The translations under genes and the position numbers were made by a program. A stretch of 64,000 bases of DNA from an uncultured Bacilli bacterium. GTDB lineage: Bacteria; Bacillota_I; Bacilli_A; RF39; UBA660. The notes beneath the pieces are model-generated. The model had not been told where the DNA came from and made no database searches. It was given only the letters and a program-made list of their open reading frames with translations. The stretch is taken from assembly GCA_944329445.1 (NCBI GenBank), contig CALVIH010000002.1, forward strand, positions 8,242 to 72,241, in the 5' to 3' direction. Below, in pieces: positions 23,792-51,165 of the stretch; within the stretch, counting starts at the first letter, position 1, and each line of letters starts with the position of its first letter.

Positions 23792-24988
23792 TTATTTTAT
23801 AACTATTTTTACAAATTTTTTCTTTCCTTTTTGAATTACAAGTTCGTTATTAACAAAATTTTTAAAAGTAATAATGGTATTAACATCATTTTCTTTTGTT
23901 CCATTTAAACTAATTCCATTTTGTCCAATCAATCTTCTTCCTTCTGACTTTGATGGAACAATTTTAGATAAGAGTAATAAATCCGGTAATGAAATACTAT
24001 TATCTATAATAGAACTTTCTACTTCTATTTCTTCAATATTATCAGGTATACCACCTTTAGCAACTGTTTTATATCTTTTTTCTGCTTGCTCTATAAGTTT
24101 TTCCTCATGATACATCTTAATTATTTCTCTGGCATACACTCTATGAGCTTCCACCACATCTTTTTCTATAATTTTTTTCGCTTTATCTAAATTTATATCT
24201 GTAGTAAGTTTAAAATAATCCATCAATACATTATCAGGAATTCTCATTGCTTTTTCATACATAATCTCAGGGCTTTCATCAACACCAATATAATTTCCTA
24301 ATGATTTACTCATCTTTTCTTTTCCGTCTAAACCCACTAATAATGGAAAACACATAACATCTTGAGGCTCTTGTCCATAATCCCTTTGCAATTCTCTTCC
24401 CACTAGCAAATTAAACGTTTGATCTGTTCCACCTATTTCTATATCCGCATGTAATGCGACAGAATCATATCCTTGCATTAATGGATATAAAAATTCATGA
24501 ATACCTATTGGAATGTTATTTTTGAATCTATTATTAAAATCGTCTCTTTCTAAGATTCTAGCAACTGTATATTTGCCAGTCAAATTAATTACATCTTTAA
24601 ATGACATTTTTGAAAGCCATTCAGAATTATAAACTATTTTAATTTTATTTGGATCTAGAATTTTAGCAACTTGCTTAAAATACGTTTCTCCATTTTTTCT
24701 GGTTTCTTCAAAACTTAGTGATGGTCTCGTTTTTGATTTGCCAGAGGGATCACCAATCATTGCAGTGAAATCTCCTATAACAAAAACAATTTCGTGACCT
24801 AATTCTTGCAATATTTTTAACGCTCTAAGTGGTACAGTATGACCTAAATGCAAATCTGGTCTAGATGGATCAGCACCAAACTTTACAACCAACTTTCTAC
24901 CACTATTTAATTTTTCAATCAAAGTATCTTTATTATGAACTTCTACTGTTCTTCTTAATATTAAATCTATTTGTTCTTTTTTATTCAT
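23792..24988 (-). CDS. tyrS: Tyrosyl-tRNA synthetase (type-2, TyrZ-like length), copy 1
   Basis: Class-I HIGH motif (PDLHLGH), KMSKS, GDPSGKSKTR tyrosine-specific block, C-terminal S4-like domain. T-box leader upstream. Confidence 0.85.
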   Translation of the reverse strand: MNKKEQIDLILRRTVEVHNKDTLIEKLNSGRKLVVKFGADPSRPDLHLGHTVPLRALKILQELGHEIVFVIGDFTAMIGDPSGKSKTRPSLSFEETRKNGETYFKQVAKILDPNKIKIVYNSEWLSKMSFKDVINLTGKYTVARILERDDFNNRFKNNIPIGIHEFLYPLMQGYDSVALHADIEIGGTDQTFNLLVGRELQRDYGQEPQDVMCFPLLVGLDGKEKMSKSLGNYIGVDESPEIMYEKAMRIPDNVLMDYFKLTTDINLDKAKKIIEKDVVEAHRVYAREIIKMYHEEKLIEQAEKRYKTVAKGGIPDNIEEIEVESSIIDNSISLPDLLLLSKIVPSKSEGRRLIGQNGISLNGTKENDVNTIITFKNFVNNELVIQKGKKKFVKIVIK

Positions 24989-24999
24989 AAATATTCCTC

Positions 25000-25235
25000 C
25001 TTCAAAAAAATACCGTGATAATTCTTATTCCATAAGGACGAATTATCGCGGTACCACCTTAATTTATGGTTAATAACCATACACTCAAAGTTATAAAGTA
25101 ACTAACTAATAAACTCATAATGTGTAATTCAAATGTATTATATGTTTAATTCCACCAAACTTAAACTCTCTAAAATATAACTAATACACTTTACTTTATC
25201 ATTAATCAGCATCTATTTAATATAAGACAATTATA
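25000..25235 (-). promoter_or_regulatory. T-box riboswitch leader (terminator/antiterminator) controlling tyrS copy 1
   Basis: Minus strand reads AAUUAAGGUGGUACCGCG at 25064..25047, against the T-box consensus AAUUAGGGUGGNACCGCG. This overlaps the 5' arm of a terminator helix (CGCGATAATTC...GAATTATCACGG) followed by UAUUUUUUU just before the RBS. An AGAGAG stem-I motif lies upstream. Confidence 0.75.
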
Positions 25236-25273: not shown

Positions 25274-26524
25274 TTATTTTTTTATTAATTTTTTATTTAC
25301 TTCTTGGTTTTGAGCTAATCTAAACATATTTCCTTTACCAATTTGAATAATTGTTCCGTCAATTGGTTTAAATACCAAATTTTCAAACCTTTCCCCATTT
25401 AGCTTAACAGCACCTTGTTGAATTAATCTTCTAACTTCACTTTTTGATTTATACTTTCCTGTAGAAAAAATACAATCAATTAATGAATATAAATCATTTC
25501 CATCTGCTAAGTTACTATCATAATTAATAATTGGTAATTCAATATTATTCACATTCTTTTTTTGATATATTGCTTGAAAACTAGCCTCAGCTTCTTTCAA
25601 CTCTTCTTCTGAATGATATAAAGAAACTATACTTCTTGCTAAATGCATTTTAATATCTCTTGGATTTGTTTCTCCATTTTGTAATAGTTTTTGTATTGAC
25701 TTTATTTTATCAGGATGCAAATCAGTTGTTAAATTATAATAATTAATTATCAGTTCATCTGGAACTCGCATAACTTTTTCATACATAGTTTTTGCATCTT
25801 CATCAACGCCAATATAATTACCAAGTGATTTACTCATTTTTTCTTTTCCATCAAGTCCAACTAATAATGGAACAAACAAAGCGACTTGTTGTGGCTTATT
25901 AAAATATTTTTGAATATTTCTTCCTAACAAAATATTAAATGTTTGATCTGTTCCTCCCATTTCTATATCAGAATTGACAACGACAGAATCGTAAGCTTGC
26001 ATTAAAGGATAAATAAATTCATGTAACGAAATAGGTTTATGAGAATTAAATCTATTTTTGAAGTCATCTCTTTCAAGCATTCTTGCTACAGTAATATTAC
26101 TACATAAGTTTAAAACTTCCGAAAAAGATATTTTATTATACCATTCACTATTAAAATGAATTTCTGTTTTTGATTTATCTATAATTTTAAATATTTGTTC
26201 AAAATAAGTTCTGGCATTTGCTTCAACTTGTTCTTTAGTAAGTTGATTACGAGTTTTTGATTTGCCTGTTGGATCACCAATTGCACCTGTAAAATCACCA
26301 ATTATTATAACTGCTTTATGACCTAAATCTTGCAATTGTTTTATTTTTCTTAATGAAACTGCATGACCAAGATGAATATCTGGTGAAGATGGGTCCATTC
26401 CGAATTTAATTCTTAATGTTCTACCTTCATTATAGACTTCTTCAACCTTATCTCTAATAGCCTGTTCATCTACATCTGTAATTCCCTTTAATAAATATTT
26501 AATTGTTTCTTCTTTGTTAAACAC
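25274..26524 (-). CDS. Tyrosyl-tRNA synthetase paralog, copy 2 (GTG start, strong RBS AAGGGGG)
   Basis: PDIHLGH, KMSKS and GDPTGKSKTR motifs; collinear with copy 1 over the full length (about half identical by eye); no T-box upstream. Confidence 0.8.
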   Translation of the reverse strand: MFNKEETIKYLLKGITDVDEQAIRDKVEEVYNEGRTLRIKFGMDPSSPDIHLGHAVSLRKIKQLQDLGHKAVIIIGDFTGAIGDPTGKSKTRNQLTKEQVEANARTYFEQIFKIIDKSKTEIHFNSEWYNKISFSEVLNLCSNITVARMLERDDFKNRFNSHKPISLHEFIYPLMQAYDSVVVNSDIEMGGTDQTFNILLGRNIQKYFNKPQQVALFVPLLVGLDGKEKMSKSLGNYIGVDEDAKTMYEKVMRVPDELIINYYNLTTDLHPDKIKSIQKLLQNGETNPRDIKMHLARSIVSLYHSEEELKEAEASFQAIYQKKNVNNIELPIINYDSNLADGNDLYSLIDCIFSTGKYKSKSEVRRLIQQGAVKLNGERFENLVFKPIDGTIIQIGKGNMFRLAQNQEVNKKLIKK

Positions 26525-26586: not shown

Positions 26587-28113
26587 AACATTTGATAGTT
26601 GTGTAAAATAGTTTGGGGAAAGAGTATGAAAAAAGGAAGACCTCTGTTAAAATGTAGTTGTACAAAACATTAGAAAGGAGTCTTCCATATGAGCATTGTA
26701 CCACAAAATTATAATAATTTGTTAAAAAATATCATTTTAAATACTTTTTCTTCTAATTTAGAAAGTATATTACATAACATCTTTGATTCTTCAAATAACG
26801 TCTTTAATTATGTTAACCTACTTTCCAATTTAGATAATTCTCTTTGTAATATTGCAAAGCAATCCCTTATCACTTGTTTTGAATCCATTGATAAATCTTT
26901 TAAATATTCTTTAGGAAGAAAACGTAAATATGAGATTAAATCTTATCATCCTAGAACTATTCTTACTGTTTTTGGTGAAATTACTTTTTATAGAACTTTC
27001 TATAAATCTAAACTAACTGGTAAAAACTTCTGTTATGTTGATAGATTATTAGGCCTTCATAAATATGACTATTTTGATCCTTATTTAAAATCTATTGTTA
27101 TTGAGTATTCTTCTTTTATTTCTTATCCTAAGGTGGCTAAATATCTTAATGATTTAATTGGTAATAGAGTATCCATTAATGATAAACAAAAATATTTTTC
27201 AAGACAAACCATCAGAAACATTATTTTAAATTCCAATCTTTCTATCGTTAATTATGATCCTAAGCCTGTTACACCAGAAACATTATACATCATCGCTGAT
27301 GAAAAATGGATTCCTACTCAAAATAATGACAATAATAAAATAATGGAAAAATCCGTTGTTATCTTTGAAGGTATTAAAAATCATAAACTTTTAAATAAAA
27401 GAATCTTCGCTTCTTATGATAATTCTTTTATAAATGATTCTTTAGATTATCTTTTTTATACTTATGACATTGATAAAATTAAAAACATTTTCGTTATGGG
27501 TGATGGTGCCAAATGGATCTATAAGTTAAAACATGAATATAAAATTGCATCTCATATAAATGTTACTTTTTGTTTAGATAAATTCCATTTTAAACAAGCC
27601 ATTCATCATATATGTTTAAACAAAGACTTAGAAGATATTCTTTCCTTTTATGTTTTAAATGATATGAAAAATGATTTCATAGATTGTTGTTCTTCTTTAA
27701 TTGATTCTTTCCCACACAGAACCGAAACTATTAACTTAAAAATGAATTACATTTTAAATAATTGGAAAAATATCAACAACTTATATTCTCATAATTTAAG
27801 TTGTCCTATGGAATCTCAAGTTTCTCATAACATCGCTGATTTATTTACCTCTAGACCTAAAGCTTATTCTGTTAATATGATTAATAAATTAATTGAAATC
27901 AGACTTCACTATAAAAATAATGATAATTTAAAAGAGTTATACTTAAATAACTTTAATTCAAGTACAACTCTTACTCTCGATAATCATTCTCTTAACTTCA
28001 ATATTTTTGATAATTTTCAATCGTATAACTTTTTAAATAACTTAATTTTTAATCCTACATTTTAACTTTTTCTATTATTTTCCCCAAAACTCTTTACATT
28101 AACATTTGATAAT
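26587..28113 (+). mobile_element. IS-like element (about 1.5 kb) bounded by imperfect terminal inverted repeats
   Basis: Left end AACATTTGATAGTTGTGTAAAATAGTTTGGGGAAAGAG (26587-26624) and right end TTTTCCCCAAAACTCTTTACATTAACATTTGATAATG (28077-28113) share an inverted TTTCCCCAAA.../...TTTGGGGAAA core and an ACATTTGATA block. A single transposase ORF lies inside. Confidence 0.4.
26689..28065 (+). CDS. Putative DDE transposase (ISLre2/UPF0236-like)
   Basis: 458 aa. YIIADEKWIPTQ and MGDGAKWIYK blocks resemble DDE-transposase catalytic motifs of the ISLre2/UPF0236 type. An 11-bp inverted repeat GGAAGACCTCT/AGGAGTCTTCC spans its RBS. Confidence 0.45.
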   Translation: MSIVPQNYNNLLKNIILNTFSSNLESILHNIFDSSNNVFNYVNLLSNLDNSLCNIAKQSLITCFESIDKSFKYSLGRKRKYEIKSYHPRTILTVFGEITFYRTFYKSKLTGKNFCYVDRLLGLHKYDYFDPYLKSIVIEYSSFISYPKVAKYLNDLIGNRVSINDKQKYFSRQTIRNIILNSNLSIVNYDPKPVTPETLYIIADEKWIPTQNNDNNKIMEKSVVIFEGIKNHKLLNKRIFASYDNSFINDSLDYLFYTYDIDKIKNIFVMGDGAKWIYKLKHEYKIASHINVTFCLDKFHFKQAIHHICLNKDLEDILSFYVLNDMKNDFIDCCSSLIDSFPHRTETINLKMNYILNNWKNINNLYSHNLSCPMESQVSHNIADLFTSRPKAYSVNMINKLIEIRLHYKNNDNLKELYLNNFNSSTTLTLDNHSLNFNIFDNFQSYNFLNNLIFNPTF

Positions 28114-29336
28114 GCATCAAATACATATCCAGAATTACCAATATTTATTAAATATTTACTAATTTTTTCAATATTTAACTTTGTTTCTTTAAAATCTGGA
28201 TAAACAATTTTAAAGATAACTTCTAGTTTGCTTTTTAATTTTTCATAAAAACATTCTTCATCATTATTAAAACAATAATAATTTAATTCATCATTAAAAC
28301 TACTATTTAAATTTACAGAATCAATTGAATAAAGCAATACTGGTAATAAAGCAGAAACTAATTTTAAGTTTTCTCTATATGCATGAATAATAGTATTATT
28401 AAATAATATTAAAATTTTTTTGTATAATTCTTTATTTGTTTTTCTAATTGCATAAAATGTCATATCCATTATTGCATCCATATTATAACCAAATAAATCA
28501 GAAATAATCGATGCCATATCAATAGGTAATAAGCAATAATCATCATATGTAATAATTTCCTTTTTCTCTGCAAACAAAACTATTTCCATAATTTTTTTTC
28601 GTAATTCCAAATCACTTTCTGAATAGCCTAATATTTCTTTAAAGTTGGATTCATAAGTATTTAATTGTGGTTCCATTCCATTATGTGTTTGCAAATCAAT
28701 TACTATATCTCTTATTAATTTCAAGTCATATAAATAACTCCAATTAATAAACAAATTTGTTCTATAAAGTAAATTAAAATATTGTATTCTTTCAAAAAAA
28801 CTAGCATTTTCAAAATCAAATAAGTAAATTTTTTGTTTTTCTTTAGAAACAACCATATTTCTAGGACAAAATCCTGGGTATTCAATTCCTAATTCACACA
28901 ATAATTTCAACATTTTTTCAAAATCATTTATTGTAAAACATAATTCATCCTGTGAGTATAAATGCTCTTGTAAAGTATTTCCCATATAATTAGTTGCAAT
29001 ATAATTTTTACCATCAACATTATATAATTTAGGTTCTATAACTTCAAGTTGAAAATTATTAATTTTTTTTCCTGTTATTAATGTAGAAGCCAACAAAGTA
29101 TTTGACATTTCTATTTTTGATTTTTTAGGATTCATATACTTTATAAGATATTCAACATTTCTATATCTAAAGATCCTAAACCTGTTATTTACATCTAATA
29201 ATTCAGAATTGTGAAAAAAATTATATATTGGATCTTTGTATGCAATTCTTATTGCATCTTCAAAATTATCAGTTTCAACAATATTGATATCATTGCTTTT
29301 ATGTAACGCACTATATAACTTACCCATTTTCACCAT
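28062..29336 (-). CDS. Kinase-fold (choline/Kdo-kinase-like) protein with a C-terminal helical extension; last gene of the 7-gene operon
   Basis: GFCPRNMVV ... KIYLFDFENASF resembles the catalytic loop and the DFE (Brenner) motif of choline/APH-type kinases, but the catalytic Asp is not evident. The 3' end overlaps the IS right inverted repeat. Confidence 0.4.
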   Translation of the reverse strand: MVKMGKLYSALHKSNDINIVETDNFEDAIRIAYKDPIYNFFHNSELLDVNNRFRIFRYRNVEYLIKYMNPKKSKIEMSNTLLASTLITGKKINNFQLEVIEPKLYNVDGKNYIATNYMGNTLQEHLYSQDELCFTINDFEKMLKLLCELGIEYPGFCPRNMVVSKEKQKIYLFDFENASFFERIQYFNLLYRTNLFINWSYLYDLKLIRDIVIDLQTHNGMEPQLNTYESNFKEILGYSESDLELRKKIMEIVLFAEKKEIITYDDYCLLPIDMASIISDLFGYNMDAIMDMTFYAIRKTNKELYKKILILFNNTIIHAYRENLKLVSALLPVLLYSIDSVNLNSSFNDELNYYCFNNDEECFYEKLKSKLEVIFKIVYPDFKETKLNIEKISKYLINIGNSGYVFDALSNVNVKSFGENNRKS

Positions 29337-30297
29337 CTTCTAAAAATTCATTCATAAATGCCGCGCCTATCATTCCTGCACTATTACCAAGTTTTGCTTG
29401 AATAACATTAACCTTCGGAGTACATTTATAACCATAATCTCTCTTAGCAATATATTCATTGATTTTTTTAAACAAAAAATCTCCTGTTTCTGAAATTCCA
29501 CCGCCAATTATTATTGCTTCTGGTCTAAAGCAATTACATATGTTTAATATACCTTCACTTAAATATTTTACATATTTATTGATTACCTTATTAGCCGATT
29601 TATCATTTAATTTAGCACAAGTGAAAGCTAAAGTCCCATCAACATTTTCGATATTGCCATAAACATGACTCCACATCAAAGAATTTTTGTTATATAACAT
29701 TTCTTCTTTTGTATACCTAATTAATGCTTTTGCAGATGCATATGCTTCAAAACATCCATGCCTACCACAAGTACATAATTCGCCATTCATCATTAATAGA
29801 GTGTGTCCAACTTCTCCGCCTTTATCTCCATTTCCTTCAAATAATTTCCCGTTTATAACAATTCCAGCACCTATTCCAGTTCCTATTGTCATAACAATCG
29901 CACTTTTATATTGCATACCAGCCCCAAACATCATTTCACCTATACAAGCTGATCTTGAATCATTACAGATTTTCATAGGAATAGTTATTCCTTTATCTTT
30001 TAATAATCCAATTATAGGAACATTATTCCACGATAAATTCCCAGAAAATTCAGCTAACCCTTTTTTTCTATTAACAATTCCTGGTATGCCTAATCCAATA
30101 AAAGATAGAAATGTATCACTTATACTCTTATTTTTTTTTATTAAATAATTTATTAAATTATATAAATTATCAACAACACTTATTTTTTCATCATCATTGA
30201 AAGTTTGGACTTTGGTAGAAAATAAAACATTTCCTTTATCATCTATAATTCCACCTTTTATAAAAGTCCCGCCAACATCTATACCTATTCTATTCAT
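29320..30297 (-). CDS. ROK-family sugar kinase (glucokinase/N-acetylhexosamine kinase-like)
   Basis: RIGIDVGGTFIKGG N-terminus and the zinc motif CTCGRHGCFEAYAS. Confidence 0.75.
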   Translation of the reverse strand: MNRIGIDVGGTFIKGGIIDDKGNVLFSTKVQTFNDDEKISVVDNLYNLINYLIKKNKSISDTFLSFIGLGIPGIVNRKKGLAEFSGNLSWNNVPIIGLLKDKGITIPMKICNDSRSACIGEMMFGAGMQYKSAIVMTIGTGIGAGIVINGKLFEGNGDKGGEVGHTLLMMNGELCTCGRHGCFEAYASAKALIRYTKEEMLYNKNSLMWSHVYGNIENVDGTLAFTCAKLNDKSANKVINKYVKYLSEGILNICNCFRPEAIIIGGGISETGDFLFKKINEYIAKRDYGYKCTPKVNVIQAKLGNSAGMIGAAFMNEFLEDGENG

Positions 30298-31321
30298 ATC
30301 TTAACACCTTATCCTTCACATTTAGATCGATAGCAAAATCCAATGAACGTATTGGAATTTTCTTCATTGTTTCTTCTCTTTTTAGCCATATATTTTCAAA
30401 ATATTCCTCAAATGTTTCAAACTCGTAGTATTCCTTTCCAATAGTCGGTAATACACCTAAATCAATTATAATCCATTGCTGTTTTTCTTCGCACCAAATA
30501 AAATTACCAGGATGAATATCTAGAATAATTTTATTAAATAATAATGAATACGTAGAGTAAAATAATCTTAAAGATTTTATTTGTTTTTCCGTAAAAGGAA
30601 TATGATTAAAAAGATAATACTCTCCATTCTCTCCGCTTACAAAATTGTGCATCAAAAATTTATTCACAGCATCAAAAGTATAATTTTCGGGTAAAAATTT
30701 ATTTAAATCTGTTTTTGATAAATAGTTATACGAATCCATTTCCTGTTGCATCAGAAATAATTTAGATGCAACAGTTTTTGGATATTTTATAATTACATTT
30801 TTTTCTAAATAAATATTTGATATAGCACCAGTATCATTGAGCAGAAACAAATTTTCTAATTTGTTTTTTTTTAATGTTACTACCCTATATAAATACATAA
30901 GTGAAAACTCAATTATGTTTTTTATATCTTTTTCAGTTATAGGCATTGTATAAATAATATTATTGAATGCATATAAAACAAGAGGACACAAACCATTGTC
31001 TGCCAAAATATTATTCAGTAATAAACTGTTTTCAAAAAGGTTATCTTCTGGTTTCATAACATTATTAAACAAAACTACTATATCATTTACATTATTAATC
31101 TTAATGTTTCTTTTACTTTTTAAAAAAGTCCTGTTATCGTATAATAATTTTTCTAAAAAAGCATAATAATAATCGTATTTTTTAGAATCGTTCTCTTTTA
31201 AATACATTAAATGATTTTTATAAACCACAAAATTAATTTTATTTTTTTCTTCATAAGTCATTTTAGAATAAAACAACATATAATTAAATAAATCTTGATT
31301 ATTTAATTCACTAAGTTTCAT
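30290..31321 (-). CDS. APH/choline-kinase-family phosphotransferase
   Basis: ILDIHPGNFIW (D-x-H-P-G-N catalytic loop) and IIIDLGV (metal-binding Asp) in the C-terminal lobe. Confidence 0.5.
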   Translation of the reverse strand: MKLSELNNQDLFNYMLFYSKMTYEEKNKINFVVYKNHLMYLKENDSKKYDYYYAFLEKLLYDNRTFLKSKRNIKINNVNDIVVLFNNVMKPEDNLFENSLLLNNILADNGLCPLVLYAFNNIIYTMPITEKDIKNIIEFSLMYLYRVVTLKKNKLENLFLLNDTGAISNIYLEKNVIIKYPKTVASKLFLMQQEMDSYNYLSKTDLNKFLPENYTFDAVNKFLMHNFVSGENGEYYLFNHIPFTEKQIKSLRLFYSTYSLLFNKIILDIHPGNFIWCEEKQQWIIIDLGVLPTIGKEYYEFETFEEYFENIWLKREETMKKIPIRSLDFAIDLNVKDKVLRYE

Positions 31322-31322
31322 A

Positions 31323-33251
31323 TTACCTTTTTAGACCATTTGGATATTTATCTAAATATTCTTTAGTTTTTTTCTTTATATATTTTACATCTGTTTCATT
31401 TTTTAAAGACTTATCAAAGAAATAATTAGAATTATCAAAATAATATGTTACTTCTTCCAACGAAAGTCCAAAAGGATTTTCATTATTTATAAATTGTTCA
31501 ACGTCTAAATCCTTTGGAGGCTTATGATACTTTAATTCTCTCATTTTGAATCCAGAATTTATTAATTTTTCATCATGATATAATTCTATTTTATACTTAG
31601 CATCTACATAAATCGCATCTATGCCTTTTTGTAGTGCGAATTGAATAGCTTCATTAATATTATTAATAATTGGTTCTCCAGCATCGTTCAAAGAAGTATT
31701 ACATAAAACAGGAATTTTTGTCCTAGCATAGAATGATTTCAATAACTCATATAAATTTTTATTACTTTCTGAACTAACACTTTGAATTCTCGCAGTTCCG
31801 TCATAATGAGTTACAGCAATTAAGTCATCTCTGTATTTTTGTTTAATACTCAAGTTCAATAACATATATGGTGAAAATCTATAATCTTCAAATATTTCTG
31901 AACCATGTTCATCCATTATTAATGGCGCTACTGGTCTCCACCACTGTCTTTTTTTAATAACATTAAGTTTATCTTTTATTGCTTGATATCTTGGATCGCC
32001 TAAAATTGATCTATCTCCCAAAGCACGAGGACCTATTTCTGCTCTTCCATCAATCCATATCATAATGTTATTTTCTAATTCAGCAGCAATTTTATCAATT
32101 GTAATCTCTTTAATTTCTTTTATATATTTTTTGTTTTCTGCGTTTATGGAATTAATACCACCATGATATTGTCCATAATATACTGTATTCAAGTTAACTT
32201 TTGCTTTTCCAGTAGAAAGTAATGGATAAAATGCCGCTAGGCCTACTCCTAAAGCAATACCTGTATCACTTGCACATGGAGGAATTTGATAGTTCTTAAA
32301 TTTGTATTTTTTTAATATTGAACTGTTAGTTGGACAATTTAAAGCAAAACCTCCTGCTAAAGCAATTGTTGTTTCCTTAGGATCCAATTTAAATGTTGAC
32401 AATATTTTATCAATATGTTTAAATACCATTTTTTCAGAAAGAACAGAAATTATTTTCATAACCATACTAATATAATTTTCTTGTTCTGTAAAATTCTCAT
32501 TAAATTTTGAACATTTTATACCTATATCCTCTTTTTTTATAGATAAAACTTGATTGCATATATCTTCAACAATAAATTGTGCATTTCCTCTAGCTTCTTC
32601 ATTATAGAAAGTTATACCATCATATTTTGAATAATCAAAATTATAAAATTCTGTGTCCATAGCTGTAGCCAATGCCATTAATGACCCTTCTCTTAAGCCA
32701 AATTTTTTATATGAATAACTCCAAAATCTTGCAGGTGATTCAACTTCAAAAAATTCAATTTTACCATTATTTATAACAGCACCTGAATAATATTGCAAAT
32801 CATATGCATTATTTTCAAAGCAACTATCTGGTCCTGCATCCAGAGCCAAAGCAATAATTTTATCAGAAAAAGGGGTACTATTTGAATAAAGTATACTTGT
32901 TAATAAATGTGCAATATTATGAAAGCATACTCTTGAGTCAATATAATTCATATAATTATTATCTATTTCTATACCTTTAGTACCCCAGATCCCTTTAATA
33001 TCATTTAGCGTTAACTGCTCTTCTTCTAATAATTTATTTATTAATTCTAATAAATAATCTTTGCTATACGCCGCAATTTGATGTTGCTTTATACCAGTAA
33101 TTCTTTCTAACTCCCAATATTTTACTAATTTAATTTCATCGTCAAAATAACTCCATAATGCGATAGTATGATCATGCCTAACTTTTACCTTTAAAATATT
33201 TTGCAATTCTCCAAAAGATAAAAATGTTGATATATAATAACCTTCTTCCAT
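31323..33251 (-). CDS. NodU/CmcH/TobZ-family O-carbamoyltransferase
   Basis: ERITGIKQH, ALAGGFALNCPTNS, and C-terminal GPRALGDRSILGDPR...KRQWWRPVAPL (Carbam_trans_C-type block). Confidence 0.7.
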   Translation of the reverse strand: MEEGYYISTFLSFGELQNILKVKVRHDHTIALWSYFDDEIKLVKYWELERITGIKQHQIAAYSKDYLLELINKLLEEEQLTLNDIKGIWGTKGIEIDNNYMNYIDSRVCFHNIAHLLTSILYSNSTPFSDKIIALALDAGPDSCFENNAYDLQYYSGAVINNGKIEFFEVESPARFWSYSYKKFGLREGSLMALATAMDTEFYNFDYSKYDGITFYNEEARGNAQFIVEDICNQVLSIKKEDIGIKCSKFNENFTEQENYISMVMKIISVLSEKMVFKHIDKILSTFKLDPKETTIALAGGFALNCPTNSSILKKYKFKNYQIPPCASDTGIALGVGLAAFYPLLSTGKAKVNLNTVYYGQYHGGINSINAENKKYIKEIKEITIDKIAAELENNIMIWIDGRAEIGPRALGDRSILGDPRYQAIKDKLNVIKKRQWWRPVAPLIMDEHGSEIFEDYRFSPYMLLNLSIKQKYRDDLIAVTHYDGTARIQSVSSESNKNLYELLKSFYARTKIPVLCNTSLNDAGEPIINNINEAIQFALQKGIDAIYVDAKYKIELYHDEKLINSGFKMRELKYHKPPKDLDVEQFINNENPFGLSLEEVTYYFDNSNYFFDKSLKNETDVKYIKKKTKEYLDKYPNGLKR

Positions 33252-33262
33252 ATTTTCCTCCT

Positions 33263-35524
33263 TTATCTAAATACAAATGGTCTTGGTTTATGCGGAACTT
33301 CTTTTGCTTCAAAAGTATCTTTTATTTTATCAAAATCCTTAATGTGTTTCATTAATTCATCAACAAATTTATCAACATATTGTCTATTAAAATGTGCAGA
33401 CATTGGATAAGCTTTTAAAACACCTATCTTTTTTCCATTGGATAAAACGTGATATCCTGATGAATAATCAATAGTGAACGAACACTTACCTTGTTTTTCC
33501 TTTTCAAGTAAATATGTATAAAATTTGTAATTATACTCGCCAAATTTTTTGGCATATTCCAAATCTCCATTACCTAAATCAAAGAAAGATGGAACATTGT
33601 TTTTTTCTTTTGCAACAAATAATGTTACAAATCCATTACTATCTAAGTCATTTATTACTTCAAATTTTCCAGTTTGTTCAAGTTTTTCTTTCAAATATTG
33701 TGAAGAATCCAAGAGATTTGCCATTATTTTTTGATATCCTTGAATACCTAACATTTTCAAATTAACATAAGCCGAAATAGGTCCACTTAATGGTCTCGAC
33801 AATTCAAGAGTATATTGGAATGGTGAATAATTGCCAAATTCTAATTCATCATATGGAATATTAGGAGCATCACCTTGTTCATATAATTCAGTTTTATCTT
33901 TAGTAATATATAGACTTGCTAGATAAGAACAAAAACCAGTTTTATGGAAGTCTACTCCAAATGAATCAGCGTATTTTATATCTTTAATTTGCTCTGTTAA
34001 AAACTTAATCTTATTTAAAGCTTTTGTATGAATATTTAATGGATTTTCATTAAAATCATAATCTTTAAAGAATAACCATACCCAACCAATTACTGAATCA
34101 ACATGAACTCTTGGAATATAATCAAGGTTATATTTTTTTACCATTTTATTTCTTAATTCAACAATTTTTTTTATAGGATCAATAGTCATTTGAATAGTAG
34201 TACATCCATTTACAATGATTGTAGCCACCTTTTTTCCTAAAGATAGAGCTTCATCAAATTCCTTCTCCAATTCATTTAAATCCACAACACCCATAGAATC
34301 TATTTTTATTCTTTTACAATTATTTTCACCTATACCTAACCATCCACAAACTTCAACATGGCAGATATGACCTTGAGTATTTGAAAAAACAATTATTTCA
34401 TCTTTTATTCCTGTTTTTCTAAAATCCTTATTTACTCTTTGGATACCATGTTTAACTGCATGCATATTTGTTGATTTGCCTCCAAATGTAAATATACCGC
34501 CGGATTTTTTATAGTCAATATCAGCTAATTCACTTATCATTTTTATAGTTGCAAGTTCAGTAGTCATCAATAATCCGCACGATAAATCTTGTGCTGCATT
34601 TGGATTATATAATGAGAAATAACTACTTGCTGCTAAAGATTCAATTGTAGGAACAGGATTAACGTTTGTTAAAGTACCTGGATTATTCCATAAAACCATA
34701 CCTTCTGTATATTTAGTTAATTGTTCATATACTTCATCAACACTTTGTGATTCAAATTTTAAATTTTCGTATTCCAAAAATTCTGCATATTTTTTATTTG
34801 TATTTTTAGGAATTCTTGAATAAGAATGGATTATGTTTTTGTCAACTTTCTTATGTAATAACTCAATATCATTCAAAAATTCAGCTATATCCATTGTTTC
34901 TGGATTTAAAAAATGTTTATTCATATTTAATTTTTCCTTTTCATAATTAATTTTTTCTAATGCATCTTCAATATTGCTTATTTCTCTTTTGTTTTTTATA
35001 TACATTGTTTTAAAGCCTAAAAAACTTGCCGGCTTTATATCAACCATATAATTATCACCTATTACATAAATTTGTCGTGGTGACAATTTATATTTTTTTA
35101 CGATTTTTTTGTATATTTCAAATTTATTTTTATGTTTATCAGTACAATAAATTTCGTCAAATAATTTTTCAACACCTAAATTTTTAAGTATTTCTTTAAC
35201 ATGATACTCACATGAATTAGAGCAAACGATCTTTTTACCATCTAACTTACACAATTCTTTTTTTAAATTATCATTTTTATCAAAATATTCATTGTAATTT
35301 ATATCTTTATATACTTCTTTATAAAAATCCTTTTTATCAATCTTTAACTTTTCTAAAGCAATTAATAAATCAGGAATTTCTTTTTCTAAATTTTTATATT
35401 CGTTTTCTGTTAAATGTCCTTTTTGCTTTATATAGTTTTTAATTCTTTTGTCAATTATTTTCGAAATGCGATTACTTTCATCATATAATGTTCCATCTAA
35501 ATCAAAGATAAATAATTGTTTCAT
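33263..35524 (-). CDS. Fusion protein: N-terminal HAD-superfamily phosphatase plus PLP-dependent group-II decarboxylase
   Basis: HAD motifs FIFDLDGTLYDE, CSNS, YVIGDNYMVD (residues 1-200); decarboxylase motifs SGGIFTFGGKSTNMHAV, HVDSVIGW and the PLP-lysine block SFGVDFHKTGF. Confidence 0.65.
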   Translation of the reverse strand: MKQLFIFDLDGTLYDESNRISKIIDKRIKNYIKQKGHLTENEYKNLEKEIPDLLIALEKLKIDKKDFYKEVYKDINYNEYFDKNDNLKKELCKLDGKKIVCSNSCEYHVKEILKNLGVEKLFDEIYCTDKHKNKFEIYKKIVKKYKLSPRQIYVIGDNYMVDIKPASFLGFKTMYIKNKREISNIEDALEKINYEKEKLNMNKHFLNPETMDIAEFLNDIELLHKKVDKNIIHSYSRIPKNTNKKYAEFLEYENLKFESQSVDEVYEQLTKYTEGMVLWNNPGTLTNVNPVPTIESLAASSYFSLYNPNAAQDLSCGLLMTTELATIKMISELADIDYKKSGGIFTFGGKSTNMHAVKHGIQRVNKDFRKTGIKDEIIVFSNTQGHICHVEVCGWLGIGENNCKRIKIDSMGVVDLNELEKEFDEALSLGKKVATIIVNGCTTIQMTIDPIKKIVELRNKMVKKYNLDYIPRVHVDSVIGWVWLFFKDYDFNENPLNIHTKALNKIKFLTEQIKDIKYADSFGVDFHKTGFCSYLASLYITKDKTELYEQGDAPNIPYDELEFGNYSPFQYTLELSRPLSGPISAYVNLKMLGIQGYQKIMANLLDSSQYLKEKLEQTGKFEVINDLDSNGFVTLFVAKEKNNVPSFFDLGNGDLEYAKKFGEYNYKFYTYLLEKEKQGKCSFTIDYSSGYHVLSNGKKIGVLKAYPMSAHFNRQYVDKFVDELMKHIKDFDKIKDTFEAKEVPHKPRPFVFR

Positions 35525-37458
35525 CTATTTTTATTCAACCTCTTTAAAACCATTTTTTTTATCCCTTCATCATCAAATTGATAATGTTTAATCAAATCAT
35601 CAACTTTACCAGACGTACCTTCATAATACCCATGTCCATATATAAATTTAGGTCTTGGTAATGTTTCACTACTCAATATTGTGCTTGATACATGTTGTGG
35701 AAGTATTTCTGGACTACCATTATATAATGTAATAATAGGAGCATCATTAACTAATAATTCATTTGCTTTTTGTTCAAACTTATTTGGGCATACCATGTTT
35801 ATTACATTTGTTGGAATTCCATAATTTATTTCCAAATCTTTTGCAACTTTTACAGCATTTTCTCCCATAAAACCAGTAGAAATTAGCACAAGCCTAGGTT
35901 CTTTATCAGTTTGATGAATATAATAGGCAATAATATTATCTTTATCACTATCGTTTCGTTCAATATTTAAAGTCCCATGATGTATTCTAACATAATTCAA
36001 ACCAGTATTTTTCTTTAAGATTGATGAATATATATTGTATAAATCCACATTATCAGCCGGTTCATAAAAATTCACATCTGGTATGGTCATTAAAGCACCT
36101 GGCTGTGATACAGTTTGATGTGTTTTTCCGTTATGTCCTTGAAATATTCCTGAATTTTCTCCAATAACTAATATATTACTTTCGCCCGTTGCTGCTGCAT
36201 TAAGTTGATCCATAAACCTGTACGAAAAAGCATCTCCACTACATAATATAATTCTTGCATCACGATTTTCCACTGAAATGCCATGAGCCATTGCTATAGC
36301 ATGTTGTTCTCTAATTCCTGTATTAATAAAATGCGTAAAATTTTTAAAGTCTGCTAAAGTCTCTGTATCCTTTCTTATCAAATCAGGTGTAATAAAATAT
36401 ATATTTGACTTATCATGACTTTGTATTACATTTTTTCTTAATTCTTCAAAAAACTGATCTTGTGCATCTTCAACATTTATACCAGTATGATCCGTATGTA
36501 TGTCAAATACATCAGAATCAATATAGTTATTCTTAATAATTACATTAGACGGAGTAGAAATAAGTTTCTTTGCAAGTGAAGAAATGTTTTCACAACTTAA
36601 TCCTTGCTGTTCTAACGCTGTTTTCATTTCTTTATAAGTCTCTATTATAAGTTCTTTTTCTTTTTTACTAGCACCTGATAATGTATGATATCCATTAAAA
36701 TGTTCAATGGCATTTTTAATTCCATAAGCTTTTGTTGTATTTGCAATAATCATAATTGGTTTATTTTGTTTTTGTGTCTTACTATATGCATCTAAAACTT
36801 CTTGTATATTATTACCATCTTCTATAGATATAACATCCCAGCCATATCCTCTCCATATTTCTTCAATATTTGCTCCAGAATCATGATAACTTGTTGCTCC
36901 TGATAATTGTTTACCATTTTTATCCAATATACATATTAGATTATTTAAATTTAAATTAGCTGCATGACGAGCTGCTTCAGAAATATTTCCTTCTTGTTCT
37001 TCACCATCCCCTAGGAAAACAACTATTTTTGAATCAATACTTTTATCCTTATTTGCTATTGCAGAACCTACTCCATAAGAAAGAATCATTCCTAATGAAC
37101 CACTTGGTGTAATATCTACTCCAGGAACAAAAAACATATCCTCGTGTCCTTGCAATCTAGACCCTAATTGTCTGTACCCTTTTAATTCATCTGGTTTAAT
37201 GTATCCTAATAGTGAAAATATTGTATATCTCAAAGGGCCTTCATGACCTCTTATCAAAACTCTATCTCTATTTGGATTTTTCGAGTCTTCTGGATCAAAA
37301 TTAAAAACTCCTCCAAAATACAAAGCTGTTAACAACTCTACTGAAGACATATTTCCTCCAAGATGCCCATTATTTGCATTTAGAATTGTTCCTAATGCTG
37401 TTGTTCTAACATAATTAGCGATCTTCTTTAATTCATCTAATCTTTCTTTTTCCGTCAT
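35521..37458 (-). CDS. Transketolase-family thiamine-diphosphate enzyme
   Basis: GHLGGNMSSVELLTALYF, NPNRDRVLIRGHEGP, GYRQLGSRLQGHED, and the TPP motif GDGEEQEGNISEAARHAANLNLNNLICILDKN. Confidence 0.7.
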   Translation of the reverse strand: MTEKERLDELKKIANYVRTTALGTILNANNGHLGGNMSSVELLTALYFGGVFNFDPEDSKNPNRDRVLIRGHEGPLRYTIFSLLGYIKPDELKGYRQLGSRLQGHEDMFFVPGVDITPSGSLGMILSYGVGSAIANKDKSIDSKIVVFLGDGEEQEGNISEAARHAANLNLNNLICILDKNGKQLSGATSYHDSGANIEEIWRGYGWDVISIEDGNNIQEVLDAYSKTQKQNKPIMIIANTTKAYGIKNAIEHFNGYHTLSGASKKEKELIIETYKEMKTALEQQGLSCENISSLAKKLISTPSNVIIKNNYIDSDVFDIHTDHTGINVEDAQDQFFEELRKNVIQSHDKSNIYFITPDLIRKDTETLADFKNFTHFINTGIREQHAIAMAHGISVENRDARIILCSGDAFSYRFMDQLNAAATGESNILVIGENSGIFQGHNGKTHQTVSQPGALMTIPDVNFYEPADNVDLYNIYSSILKKNTGLNYVRIHHGTLNIERNDSDKDNIIAYYIHQTDKEPRLVLISTGFMGENAVKVAKDLEINYGIPTNVINMVCPNKFEQKANELLVNDAPIITLYNGSPEILPQHVSSTILSSETLPRPKFIYGHGYYEGTSGKVDDLIKHYQFDDEGIKKMVLKRLNKNR

Positions 37459-37475: not shown

Positions 37476-38921
37476 CTACTTCCTATTGAACTCTCTTATT
37501 CTTCTTTTCGCATACGTCGTAACTGCTTTGTCTTCCCAATCTTCTCTTGGTCCAAATGATAAATCGTCTGTTATTATTCTTACTCTATCTTTGTTTTTAA
37601 GTGGCTTATCAACATCCACATACTCATCATTTACAATAGCAGCCACCATGGTATTACCAATATCAGTATGTATTTTATAGGCAAAATCTATTGGTGTTGC
37701 TCCTACTGGTAACTCAACTATTTCTCCTTTAGTTGTGTATACATATATTTTGTTTGCAAATAATTCATTTTTCACTTGATATACAAATTCTTTATTGTCT
37801 CCAAAAACTTTATCCATTTCAACAAGTGATGTAAAAAACTGATATTTATCTTTTAGTTCTTGTTGCATAACTTCTCTTGCTTTCCCCTTTTCAATATCCC
37901 AATAAGTTGATAGTCCAAACGATGCTACTTTATCCATATCAAATGTTCTTATTTGTGTTTGTACTAATCTATCATCTGGTGCAAATACGGTTGTATGAAG
38001 TGATCTGTACATGTTTGTTTTTGGATTGCATATAAAGTCTTTAAACTTGCCATTTACCGGATTATACTTACTATGAACAAGTCTTAATGTTTGATAACAA
38101 TTATTAACCGTATCAACCATTACTTTAAGAGCTAACAAATCATGTATGTCAGATATTTTTCCACCTTCATTTAACTTTTTATATATTCCATATATATTTT
38201 TTGTTCTTACTTTTATTTCATTTGGAATTGATTCATCATTAAGCATACTTTGTATCGTTTGTAACATTTCTTTTAAACATGATTCACTTTCTTCTTCAAT
38301 TCTTATTTTCTTTTCACCAATCATCTTATACATATCAGGCTTTAAATACCTAAGTGATAAATCCTCTAATTCTTGTTTTATTCTATATGCTCCAATGTAA
38401 TATGCCATAGGAACAAATATCTCAAGTGTTTCTAGAGCATTTTCTTTTTGTTTAAACTCACTTTTAAATTGTAAAGTCCTCATGTTATGAAGCCTATCAG
38501 CCAGTTTTATTAAAATAATTCTTACATCATTTGTTATACTTGTTATTATTTTTCTTGTATTAGCCAAATTCTGATCTTGTTTTGATGAAAAGTTCATCTT
38601 ACTTATCTTTGTTACTCCGTCAACTAAGTTTGCAACATCACTATTAAAGTTTTCTGCAATTTCTTCTTTAGAAATATTAGTATCTTCTAAAGTGTCATGT
38701 AAAAGACCCGCACATACTGTGTCACCATCCGCTCTTAATTCAGCTAATATGTAAGCTACATTTAACGGATGAATTATATAAGGTTCGCCGCTTTGTCTTT
38801 GCTGGCCTTGATGAAGAGTATTTGCCATATTATAGGCCCTTCTTACTTCTTCAACCTCATCAGGATTATATGATTTAATAATACCTATTAAATCATTAAT
38901 ATCTAGACTTTCTTTACTCAT
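37476..38921 (-). CDS. RelA/SpoT homolog truncated after the TGS domain (HD hydrolase + synthetase + TGS; no ZFD/ACT C-terminal region)
   Basis: HD motif HPLNVAYIL...LLHDTLEDT; synthetase motifs RTKNIYGIYKKL, DLLALKVMV, YRSLHTTV, QTQIRT; TGS motif IYVYTTKGEIVELPVGATPIDFAYKIHTDIGN. First gene of the operon. Confidence 0.7.
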   Translation of the reverse strand: MSKESLDINDLIGIIKSYNPDEVEEVRRAYNMANTLHQGQQRQSGEPYIIHPLNVAYILAELRADGDTVCAGLLHDTLEDTNISKEEIAENFNSDVANLVDGVTKISKMNFSSKQDQNLANTRKIITSITNDVRIILIKLADRLHNMRTLQFKSEFKQKENALETLEIFVPMAYYIGAYRIKQELEDLSLRYLKPDMYKMIGEKKIRIEEESESCLKEMLQTIQSMLNDESIPNEIKVRTKNIYGIYKKLNEGGKISDIHDLLALKVMVDTVNNCYQTLRLVHSKYNPVNGKFKDFICNPKTNMYRSLHTTVFAPDDRLVQTQIRTFDMDKVASFGLSTYWDIEKGKAREVMQQELKDKYQFFTSLVEMDKVFGDNKEFVYQVKNELFANKIYVYTTKGEIVELPVGATPIDFAYKIHTDIGNTMVAAIVNDEYVDVDKPLKNKDRVRIITDDLSFGPREDWEDKAVTTYAKRRIREFNRK

Positions 38922-50811: not shown

Positions 50812-51165
50812 AGTTTTAATAAGCCACGTTCTGTACCAGCATAACTGGTCGTAAACATTTATCTATGCTAAAATTAGCATCCCTTACTCCGTTCGTTTCC
50901 TTCGTAAGGGTTCCCCTACCAAATTTGGGTTTCTCACTCATGGGGTTTACCCTCGTTCCACCTTCTTGGTTTCCCAAGAAAATCGTCACTATGGCACTTT
51001 ATGCCTAACATAACCATATCACAAGGACTATAGGTTACTTCGGCGCCGTTAGGATTAATCCTACCAAAGGTTATTTATTCCCTTTGCATGAACACTACGG
51101 CCATCACAGAACCGTGTGAGCGTGGACTTTCCTCTACTTAAAACAAGCAGCGTTTACGTAAAAAC
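50812..51165 (-). ncRNA. rnpB: RNase P RNA (bacterial type B)
   Basis: Minus strand reads GUUUUUACGUAAACGCUGC...UAGAGGAAAGUCCACGCUCACACGG... AAAGUGCCAUAGUGACG ... GGAACGAGGGUAAACCCCAUGAGUGAGAAACCCAAAUUUGGUAGGGGAACC ... ACAGAACGUGGCUUAUU. This is collinear with B. subtilis rnpB including the P4 sequences, and it lies directly downstream of gpsB as in Bacillus. The ends are accurate to about 5 nt. Confidence 0.8.

Follow-up and report, generated by a model that had tools for sequence, protein, structure and literature searches.

An in-frame fusion of a HAD phosphatase and a group-II decarboxylase in an uncultured Bacilli bacterium, from a decarboxylase family whose clades follow the neighbouring tRNA synthetase

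Is a phosphatase that shares one reading frame with a decarboxylase a real protein, and if so, which pathway would make use of the pair? The question is raised by a locus of an uncultured Bacilli bacterium (GTDB lineage RF39; UBA660), of which we analysed a stretch of 64,000 nucleotides, here called the window (assembly GCA_944329445.1, contig CALVIH010000002.1, positions 8,242 to 72,241). On the minus strand of the window, positions 33263..35524 hold an open reading frame (ORF) of 753 codons (P0001) with an ATG start and no internal stop, which joins a HAD phosphatase to a group-II decarboxylase dependent on pyridoxal 5'-phosphate (PLP). A first-pass annotation, made from the letters alone, had placed this frame at exactly these coordinates and had read it as an in-frame fusion of the two domains, and both statements hold. 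Two Pfam models cover the HAD part well above their cut-offs (PF00702 at residues 4-166 with 60.3 bits against 26.4, and PF13419 at residues 6-174 with 57.5 bits against 23.8), Pyridoxal_deC (PF00282) exceeds its cut-off of 27 with 54.3 bits, and the motifs DLDGT, CSNS, K, GDNYMVD and DFHKTG are all present in the translation.

The fusion junction lies at 34922..34945 (minus strand), where the window is one base shorter than G002, a genome of the same genus (its contig and locus L006 are one record), and both frames are in register. In G002, the HAD gene (199 aa) and the decarboxylase gene (553 aa) are separate: the sequence reads ...GAGAAAAATTAA-T-ATG, i.e. a TAA stop, one base and a start codon, and AAGGAG stands upstream of the decarboxylase ATG. 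Across this stretch the window differs from G002 by one gap and two mismatches, and the net loss of one base removes the stop and thereby joins the frames at Met201, whose codon (34924-34922, minus strand) is the start codon of the separate decarboxylase gene in relatives. Given that AAGGAA still lies upstream of Met201 in the window, a separate decarboxylase might still start internally at this position.

A base dropped during sequencing or assembly would have joined two genes falsely in the same manner, and the first-pass annotation had itself raised a frameshift as a threat to its claim. Part of that concern was justified, as the closest relative has two genes and the change amounts to a net single base; moreover, the junction lies within an A-rich stretch and the genome is a metagenome bin of 59 contigs. 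The suspicion of a sequencing error, however, did not stand. Separately assembled Logan contigs from four runs, representing three samples of one study (chicken gut according to the record), cover positions 34700-35200 with 0 differing letters and 0 gaps, although two of these runs are possibly the window's own source and, with all four coming from one study, independent confirmation is still wanted. One contig of run X3 (record 6, 34789-35171) spans the junction and stems from a sample that is not marked as a possible source; a contig of run X4 (record 8, 34700-35079) spans it as well, X4 belonging to sample S2, which is marked as a possible source. In addition, the fusion was also called in another lineage (P0002), on 11 contigs. 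The fusion junction is not an error of one assembly, and an artefact is extremely unlikely. Runs X3 and X4 also contain a second related contig, whose match is limited to the initial 48 bases of the decarboxylase gene (window 34877-34924, four differences); upstream of these, its sequence is A-rich and unrelated and includes an AAGGAG-like site. A co-resident strain hence has the decarboxylase as a stand-alone gene in another context.

The fusion is recent and local: two adjacent genes were joined in this lineage. Only one of the 120 homologues listed (from 147 hits) is fused likewise, namely P0002 with 752 aa and 75% identity, and the alignments of the other 119, which are 496-604 aa long, are confined to the C-terminal 62-76% of the query. 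Among 401 sampled genomes of the order, six hold a relative and only the window's own genome (G000) has it fused, which agrees with the earlier remark that the architecture is not a standard one. In the decarboxylase tree, each of the two fused proteins has a split partner, the window's being sister to P0003 (97/96*) and P0002 grouping with P0004 (84/92), so that the fusion either arose twice or was undone repeatedly; the split status of P0003-P0006 is taken from the lengths of the called proteins, with inspection at the DNA level for G002/L006 and L007. In P0203 (810 aa), a distant member of the same family, the decarboxylase is fused to another type of HAD (HAD-IB, PF12710, DxDGT intact), and HAD-decarboxylase fusions are found at least three times. 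A nucleotidyltransferase, a STAS domain or a cNMP-binding domain is the fusion partner in other members, and the N-terminal part of the members with 850-890 aa is unrelated to K343 or K424, two proteins of the window's operon that are described below. This recurrence argues that both enzymes serve one pathway, with no evidence of substrate channelling. Channelling as a conserved design, which the first-pass annotation had proposed, does not agree with relatives in which the two genes are split and in which the HAD gene lies kilobases away on the opposite strand, as in Alphaproteobacteria (L008-L010) and one Nocardia locus (L020). The fusion is tolerated and not required, and it ties the stoichiometry of two pathway enzymes.

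As a family, the decarboxylase comprises 277 representative clusters at E <= 1e-30. Relatives at less than 60% identity (about 28-29% in the 15 listed) occur in 113 records of a plasmid collection, with no synthetase in the three plasmid contexts inspected, and a phage collection gave no match. Our searches of the literature available to us returned no description of this fusion or of the cluster around it. The more interesting finding is that the clades of this family track the neighbouring synthetase, which we describe after the two domains and the operon.

The HAD domain (residues 1-200; 34925..35524, minus strand) shows D8 and D10 within FDLDGT, S102 within CSNS (101-104), K134, and D157 and D162 within GDNYMVD (156-162). 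The catalytic aspartate nucleophile, whose lack on proper alignment the first-pass annotation had named as a refutation, is present as D8 and is invariant in all eight aligned HADs linked to such clusters, together with D10, T12, K134, G156, D157, N158 and D162; the motif II position S102 is S or T in all eight. In the AlphaFold2 model of the full-length protein, residues 1-190 reach block means of 85-95 in the predicted local distance difference test (pLDDT), with strands alternating with helices and four helices (19-71, pLDDT 85-95) inserted after motif I. By motifs and fold, this half appears to be an intact C1-capped HAD phosphomonoesterase with predicted activity. Its best family match is the SDT1-type pyrimidine 5'-nucleotidase (TIGR01993; 83 bits, E 2.2e-23), and the Arabidopsis xanthosine monophosphate phosphatase (PDB 7ef6) is hit with E 5.3e-10. 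With these nucleotidases it shares the four motifs and the helical cap after motif I, but it stays below the TIGR01993 cut-off of 142.9 and aligns to 7ef6 over residues 5-130 only.

The decarboxylase domain (residues 201-753; 33263..34924, minus strand) carries DFHKTG at 525-530 with the PLP lysine K528. In group-II decarboxylases, this lysine binds PLP, the aspartate of an HVD motif serves the pyridine nitrogen and a further histidine is conserved. H186, D276, D325, H327 and K328 in domain numbering are invariant among 24 relatives (H186, D276 and K328 being H386, D476 and K528 of the full-length protein), and the HVD motif and the conserved histidine align with those of 8zpi. Modelled alone, this part reaches a pLDDT of 92 and a predicted template modelling score (pTM) of 0.90. 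Foldseek finds GAD67 with E 9e-26, and the target TM-score is 0.79-0.86 across the 25 listed chains; the matches include GAD65/67, GADL1, CSAD and diaminobutyrate, lysine, tryptophan and tyrosine decarboxylases at 14-19% identity. Thus the whole fold, the PLP lysine, the histidine preceding it and the HVD aspartate are shared with the solved group-II enzymes (GAD65/67, GADL1, CSAD, diaminobutyrate decarboxylase, DfoJ, tryptophan and tyrosine decarboxylases), whereas the protein described here is about 60-90 residues longer and has invariant motifs of its own (FTFGGK, DFHKTGF, NYSPF). A catalytic-loop tyrosine protonates the carbanion and distinguishes a decarboxylase from an aldehyde synthase; the candidate tyrosines (PYDEL, GNYSPF) lie in a low-confidence loop, and neither column is invariant across clades. 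We regard this half as a probably complete group-II PLP decarboxylase that keeps the PLP lysine, the HVD aspartate and the conserved histidine, with predicted activity. Between the domains, confidence drops to 67 at residues 191-200 and the full-length pTM is 0.74, so that the relative placement of the domains is not confident, and a complex prediction of the two domains with their own alignments gave a score of 0.00, which is uninformative either way. Each domain is a regular member of its superfamily but scores below the cut-offs of all curated functional families, and the decarboxylase represents an uncharacterised family of about 553 aa.

The fused gene is the second in a tightly packed accessory operon on the minus strand. 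It is preceded by a transketolase-like thiamine diphosphate enzyme (645 aa, 35521..37458), whose stop overlaps the start of the fused frame by 4 bases, and followed on the same strand by a carbamoyltransferase of the NodU/TobZ type (642 aa, 31323..33251), the unclassified protein K343 (30290..31321), a ROK-family sugar kinase (325 aa, 29320..30297) and K424 (28062..29336). K343 has a protein-kinase-like catalytic motif with D268, H270, N273 and D287 invariant, and K424, the second unclassified kinase-like protein, shows R159, N160 and D174 as invariant, catalytic-loop-like residues. Profiles of both against the PDB returned protein-kinase matches only, all of them non-significant (E 0.03-0.2), and the look-alike families (APH, RIO1, ABC1, Kdo-kinase, Pkinase) are leads, none of them significant; both proteins are presumably kinase-like judging from these motifs. 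PADLOC gave no defence-system match for the operon beyond weak hits of K343 (PD-T4-6, E 0.0013) and of Rel-481, the short RelA/SpoT homologue at the head of the island (37476..38921, minus strand), which ends 17 bases upstream of the transketolase-like gene.

Two tyrosyl-tRNA synthetase (TyrRS) genes follow downstream of the operon, both on the minus strand. TyrRS-416 (25274..26524) is of the Thermus/TyrZ-like type and retains HIGH, KMSKS and the S4 tRNA-binding domain. TyrRS-398 (23792..24988) stands behind a T-box leader (25031..25218, minus strand; 94.4 bits, gathering score 93), whose specifier is read as UAC (Tyr) from the alignment and which recurs before the orthologous TyrRS in L006 and L041; TyrRS-416 has no T-box, and no tRNA gene was found in the 64-kb window. 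Promoter-like sites show no excess over shuffled sequence (128 versus 120.9), with one 11-of-12 match just upstream of TyrRS-416. The window and G002 are collinear over 38786-28131 and 26593-23785 at 86-88% nucleotide identity. Between these blocks, the window contains an insertion of about 1.54 kb (26594..28130) that is absent from G002 and includes the ORF of a UPF0236 transposase (26689-28065, plus strand). About 23 bases gave way to it, the last 23 codons of K424 fall within the inserted sequence and are changed, and TyrRS-416 is cut off from the operon.

The window's genome, 1.17 Mb in size, has three TyrRS genes and one gene resembling tryptophanyl-tRNA synthetase (TrpRS). The TyrRS on contig C16 shares 27-29% identity with the two others and represents the type present in all genus relatives, i.e. 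the housekeeping enzyme; 20 of 24 genus relatives have it as their single TyrRS. Orthologues of TyrRS-416 at 70% identity or more occur only in G000 and G002, both of which have the cluster, and at the end of a contig in G023. TyrRS-416 is co-inherited with the cluster. The cluster TyrRS is also an extra copy in four of five other genomes that bear the cluster, among them the 1.0-Mb Patescibacteria genome of L039, which has three TyrRS genes.

For a broader view, we clustered all ORFs of 81 loci, namely 80 fetched loci that encode decarboxylase relatives and the window. A TyrRS is encoded in 26 of them, one of which (L031) is closer to that genome's TrpRS-like gene, and a leucyl-tRNA synthetase (LeuRS) in 10. 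Further partners are a Pol-beta nucleotidyltransferase (24 loci), an AlkP-type phosphodiesterase (16), K424-like proteins (16), the carbamoyltransferase (10), K343 (9), Rel (9) and the transketolase-like enzyme (7). In the tree of 80 decarboxylases, all ten LeuRS-linked rows fall inside one starred clade of 18. The labels change 10 times for Tyr and five times for Leu, compared with means of 21.9 and 9.6 after shuffling, and none of 500 shuffles was as low; as labels are shared among kin, this result describes clustering and not strict co-evolution. The decarboxylase clades follow the type of the neighbouring synthetase, TyrRS or LeuRS. Tyr-linked and Leu-linked decarboxylases differ by clade-specific residues in 21 columns.

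The other operon enzymes accompany the decarboxylase to different extents. Decarboxylase, K343, HAD and TyrRS occur together in Nocardia (L014, L016, L020) and in Alphaproteobacteria metagenome-assembled genomes (MAGs; L008, L009), and L010 has the first three on a contig that ends before any TyrRS. The carbamoyltransferase is present in L008, L009, L010, L016 and L020 and missing from L014. A Clostridia locus (L021) combines decarboxylase, carbamoyltransferase, K343 and TyrRS, with no HAD found at the locus, and the ROK kinase is restricted to the genus. In other cassette types, a different phosphohydrolase lies beside the decarboxylase, either an HD-domain protein (seven loci) or the AlkP-type phosphodiesterase mentioned above (16 loci). 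Three unrelated phosphohydrolase folds (HAD, HD, AlkP-type) next to the decarboxylase, together with the repeated HAD fusion, favour a functional decarboxylase-phosphohydrolase pair. Furthermore, a flavin amine oxidase adjoins the TyrRS-decarboxylase pair in L027 (its ORF cluster is found in four loci), which makes an amine intermediate plausible.

Some of these loci show further features. In L039 (Patescibacteria), L027, L030 and L033, the cassette combines a TyrRS and the decarboxylase with a B12-binding radical SAM enzyme and with another TyrRS encoded on the opposite strand, with the flavin amine oxidase of L027 lying upstream. A sister decarboxylase clade (L029, L042, L049, L056, L058, L061, L062, L065-L067) is accompanied by the Pol-beta nucleotidyltransferase, the AlkP-type phosphodiesterase and LeuRS, and FemAB-family genes are found close by in some of these loci. 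The cluster TyrRS of Clostridia L021 (5810-7744, plus strand) is fused to an N-terminal B3_4 domain, giving a protein of 644 aa; no other TyrRS was found in this genome. In Nocardia sp. 2TAF39 (L016:15250-17483), the cluster adjoins genes for a 5-hydroxymethyldeoxyuridine (5-hmdU) DNA kinase and a thymidylate-synthase-like protein, which relate to DNA hypermodification.

Taken together, the context of an extra TyrRS and the clades that follow TyrRS or LeuRS point to tyrosine-related chemistry. With a probability of roughly 0.5, we suggest that the fused protein catalyses two steps, a decarboxylation and a dephosphorylation, in the pathway of a tyrosine-derived metabolite; this metabolite would act on TyrRS or be made with it, TyrRS-416 being the immunity copy. 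According to this proposal, the decarboxylase would remove the alpha-carboxyl group of tyrosine, or of an amino acid derived from it that may carry a phosphate, to yield an amine. One of the kinase-like proteins might add a phosphate that the HAD half would later remove, either as a protect-and-release or as an activation step. The product could then be decorated by the carbamoyltransferase and, in the gut versions, also by the transketolase-like enzyme, resulting in a tyrosine-related small molecule that may act on TyrRS, while the co-inherited TyrRS-416 would keep the translation of the producer running.

Several observations speak against this proposal. The decarboxylase is equidistant from glutamate, cysteine-sulfinate, diaminobutyrate, lysine, tryptophan and tyrosine decarboxylases (14-19% identity) and scores below every curated NCBIfam cut-off, including those for MfnA (TIGR03812, 49.5 versus 299.4 bits) and glutamate decarboxylase (TIGR01788, 44.1 versus 380.4 bits). 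Plain decarboxylation of tyrosine would give tyramine, which is no obvious mimic of tyrosyl-adenylate, and an extra TyrRS fits a supply or biosynthetic role equally well as immunity. In the Clostridia MAG G437, the cluster TyrRS is the only TyrRS found, and 44 of the 80 tree rows have no synthetase within 8 kb. With its insertion and its frame-joining indel, the island copy may also be eroding in this lineage, and the fusion could be a neutral, tolerated lesion rather than an improvement.

Copies of synthetases inside clusters are known from albomycin (AbmK) and agrocin 84 (AgnB2). Likewise, pathways for synthetase inhibitors contain SbzA, an isoleucyl-tRNA synthetase in the case of SB-203208, and AcmD/AcmF, which resemble alanyl-tRNA synthetase, in the case of ascamycin, with immunity or biosynthetic roles (PMC12945691). 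As in these cases, an extra full-length synthetase is inherited here with enzymes for small molecules, and the carbamoyltransferase and the nucleotide-type phosphatase recall the chemistry of nucleoside antibiotics. In contrast to the known clusters, there are no nonribosomal peptide synthetase, sulfamate or thiosugar genes, a group-II decarboxylase is the constant core, and the hosts are small-genome gut bacteria, candidate phyla radiation (CPR) bacteria and archaea, besides actinomycetes. The same precedents leave room for a tRNA-dependent biosynthesis, in which TyrRS would provide Tyr-tRNA or Tyr-AMP and the tyrosyl group would be moved onto an amine or nucleoside-like scaffold made by the decarboxylase, the kinases and the carbamoyltransferase, comparable to valanimycin and ascamycin. 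AcmD/AcmF act in this manner in ascamycin and SbzA combines the two roles (PMC12945691), and the intact HIGH, KMSKS and S4 elements of TyrRS-416 as well as the proximity of the HAD to nucleotide phosphatases would be in line with it. However, there is no recognisable aminoacyl-tRNA-dependent transferase (GNAT/Fem or cyclodipeptide synthase) among the operon proteins and no tRNA gene in the window, and the two unclassified proteins, K343 and K424, resemble kinases; we therefore consider this route rather unlikely. Returning to amine production itself, the tyrosine decarboxylase (TDC) cluster of enterococci and lactobacilli (tyrS-tdcA-tyrP-nhaC) also ties a group-II decarboxylase to an extra TyrRS and has a tyrosine-responsive leader before the TyrRS copy. 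A tyrS adjoining such a decarboxylase and induced by low tyrosine is documented (PMC3315439), and TyrRS-398 with its T-box would match a supply synthetase that sustains charging at low tyrosine while tyrosine is converted to tyramine for pH or energy balance. Yet the operon encodes neither a tyrosine/tyramine nor a Na+/H+ antiporter, nor any other transporter family, its five further enzymes would be superfluous to a simple decarboxylation, the decarboxylase reaches only 30.4 bits against a cut-off of 905.3 in the model of the enterococcal enzyme (TIGR03811), and it is the cluster-borne TyrRS-416 that lacks the T-box, all of which renders this explanation unlikely.

The island could alternatively serve resistance, with a selective TyrRS and with enzymes whose phosphorylation, carbamoylation or decarboxylation would disarm a toxic analogue of tyrosine or an inhibitor of TyrRS made by neighbouring cells. 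A selective second TyrRS against D-tyrosine has been described for TyrZ (PMC9437257), TyrRS-416 is of the TyrZ-like type, the kinase-like proteins resemble the APH family and some loci lie in defence-rich neighbourhoods. We nevertheless find detoxification improbable, as a transketolase-like enzyme and a phosphatase that undoes the work of a kinase better match biosynthesis, and in genus relatives this site is occupied by a cassette of biosynthetic appearance (ATP-grasp, radical SAM, aminotransferase) that comes with two additional class-I synthetases. The first-pass annotation had itself favoured channelling by a bifunctional enzyme, from phosphoserine or a phospho-amino-sugar acid to the amine; a cell-surface head group would be one example of a use for the product. 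Systems in which a kinase, a PLP decarboxylase and a HAD phosphatase handle phospho-amino acids are known, for example PduX-CobD, CobD being the threonine-phosphate decarboxylase, and capsule enzymes of Campylobacter; the window's operon likewise encodes kinase-like proteins together with a PLP decarboxylase and a HAD phosphatase, and it also has a ROK sugar kinase and a carbamoyltransferase. Those decarboxylases, however, belong to the aminotransferase class I/II family and not to group II, and they have no link to a tRNA synthetase. Moreover, genes for glycosyltransferases, nucleotidyl sugars or lipid carriers are missing from the operon, TyrRS rather than surface-polymer genes is the faithful partner across phyla, the ROK kinase is confined to the genus, and the fusion is a strain-level event with the two genes far apart in other lineages. 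Nothing points to either of the proposed substrates, the context being TyrRS and the HAD being nearest to nucleotide phosphatases, and we regard such channelling as very unlikely.

A more general scheme is put forward here tentatively as a possibility. The decarboxylase family of about 553 aa would form the core of widespread, undescribed mobile cassettes that make amino-acid-derived antimetabolites, each directed against one tRNA synthetase. The clade would set the amino acid (Tyr or Leu), a phosphate or nucleotide partner (kinase-like protein, nucleotidyltransferase, HAD, HD or phosphodiesterase) would build the warhead and the co-located synthetase would give immunity, with the fusion reflecting a phosphorylated intermediate that passes between the activities. 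The cassettes are found in gut Bacilli, Clostridia, Alphaproteobacteria, CPR bacteria, Bathyarchaeia, Woesearchaeota and Nocardia, and the family recurs beside extra TyrRS or LeuRS genes in very small genomes, which can ill afford spare genes. The fusion is a small event, one base in one lineage, and its value is that of a pointer that ties a phosphatase to the decarboxylase of a large, unstudied family. Should the products indeed be directed at synthetases, the cassettes would be a new source of translation inhibitors that can be mined from genomes of gut and uncultured microbes, and many unexplained synthetase duplicates would be accounted for. Should their role be another one, for instance in tRNA-dependent synthesis or amino-acid homeostasis, the correspondence of clade and synthetase would still be a handle for assigning substrates. 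In either case, the fused form of the window and the split form of G002 represent a natural experiment on the same enzyme pair.

Finally, the site itself deserves attention. Rel-481 is neither the only nor the standard Rel of the genome: all five genus relatives asked carry a long Rel elsewhere (a frame of 719-738 aa, 44-46% identical), and orthologues of Rel-481 (86-97% identity) are present in only two of the five. Among the 81 loci, Rel homologues head decarboxylase cassettes in nine. In two genus relatives (L096, G003:C6:9000-28500, and L097, G001:C13), a different cassette lies between Rel-481 and the TyrRS-398 orthologue, comprising a class-I glutamine amidotransferase, a class-V aminotransferase, a peptidase U32, a radical SAM protein, a RimK-like ATP-grasp protein and two unknown proteins; two additional class-I synthetases (830 and 802 aa) come next. 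In the stretch of L096 there are three T-box leaders, of which one precedes the 802-aa synthetase and one the TyrRS-398 orthologue. The Rel-481/TyrRS-398 site thus looks like a hot spot for synthetase-linked cassettes. Outside the island, the window also encodes a bacterial class B RNase P RNA at 50815-51165 on the minus strand (298.7 bits).

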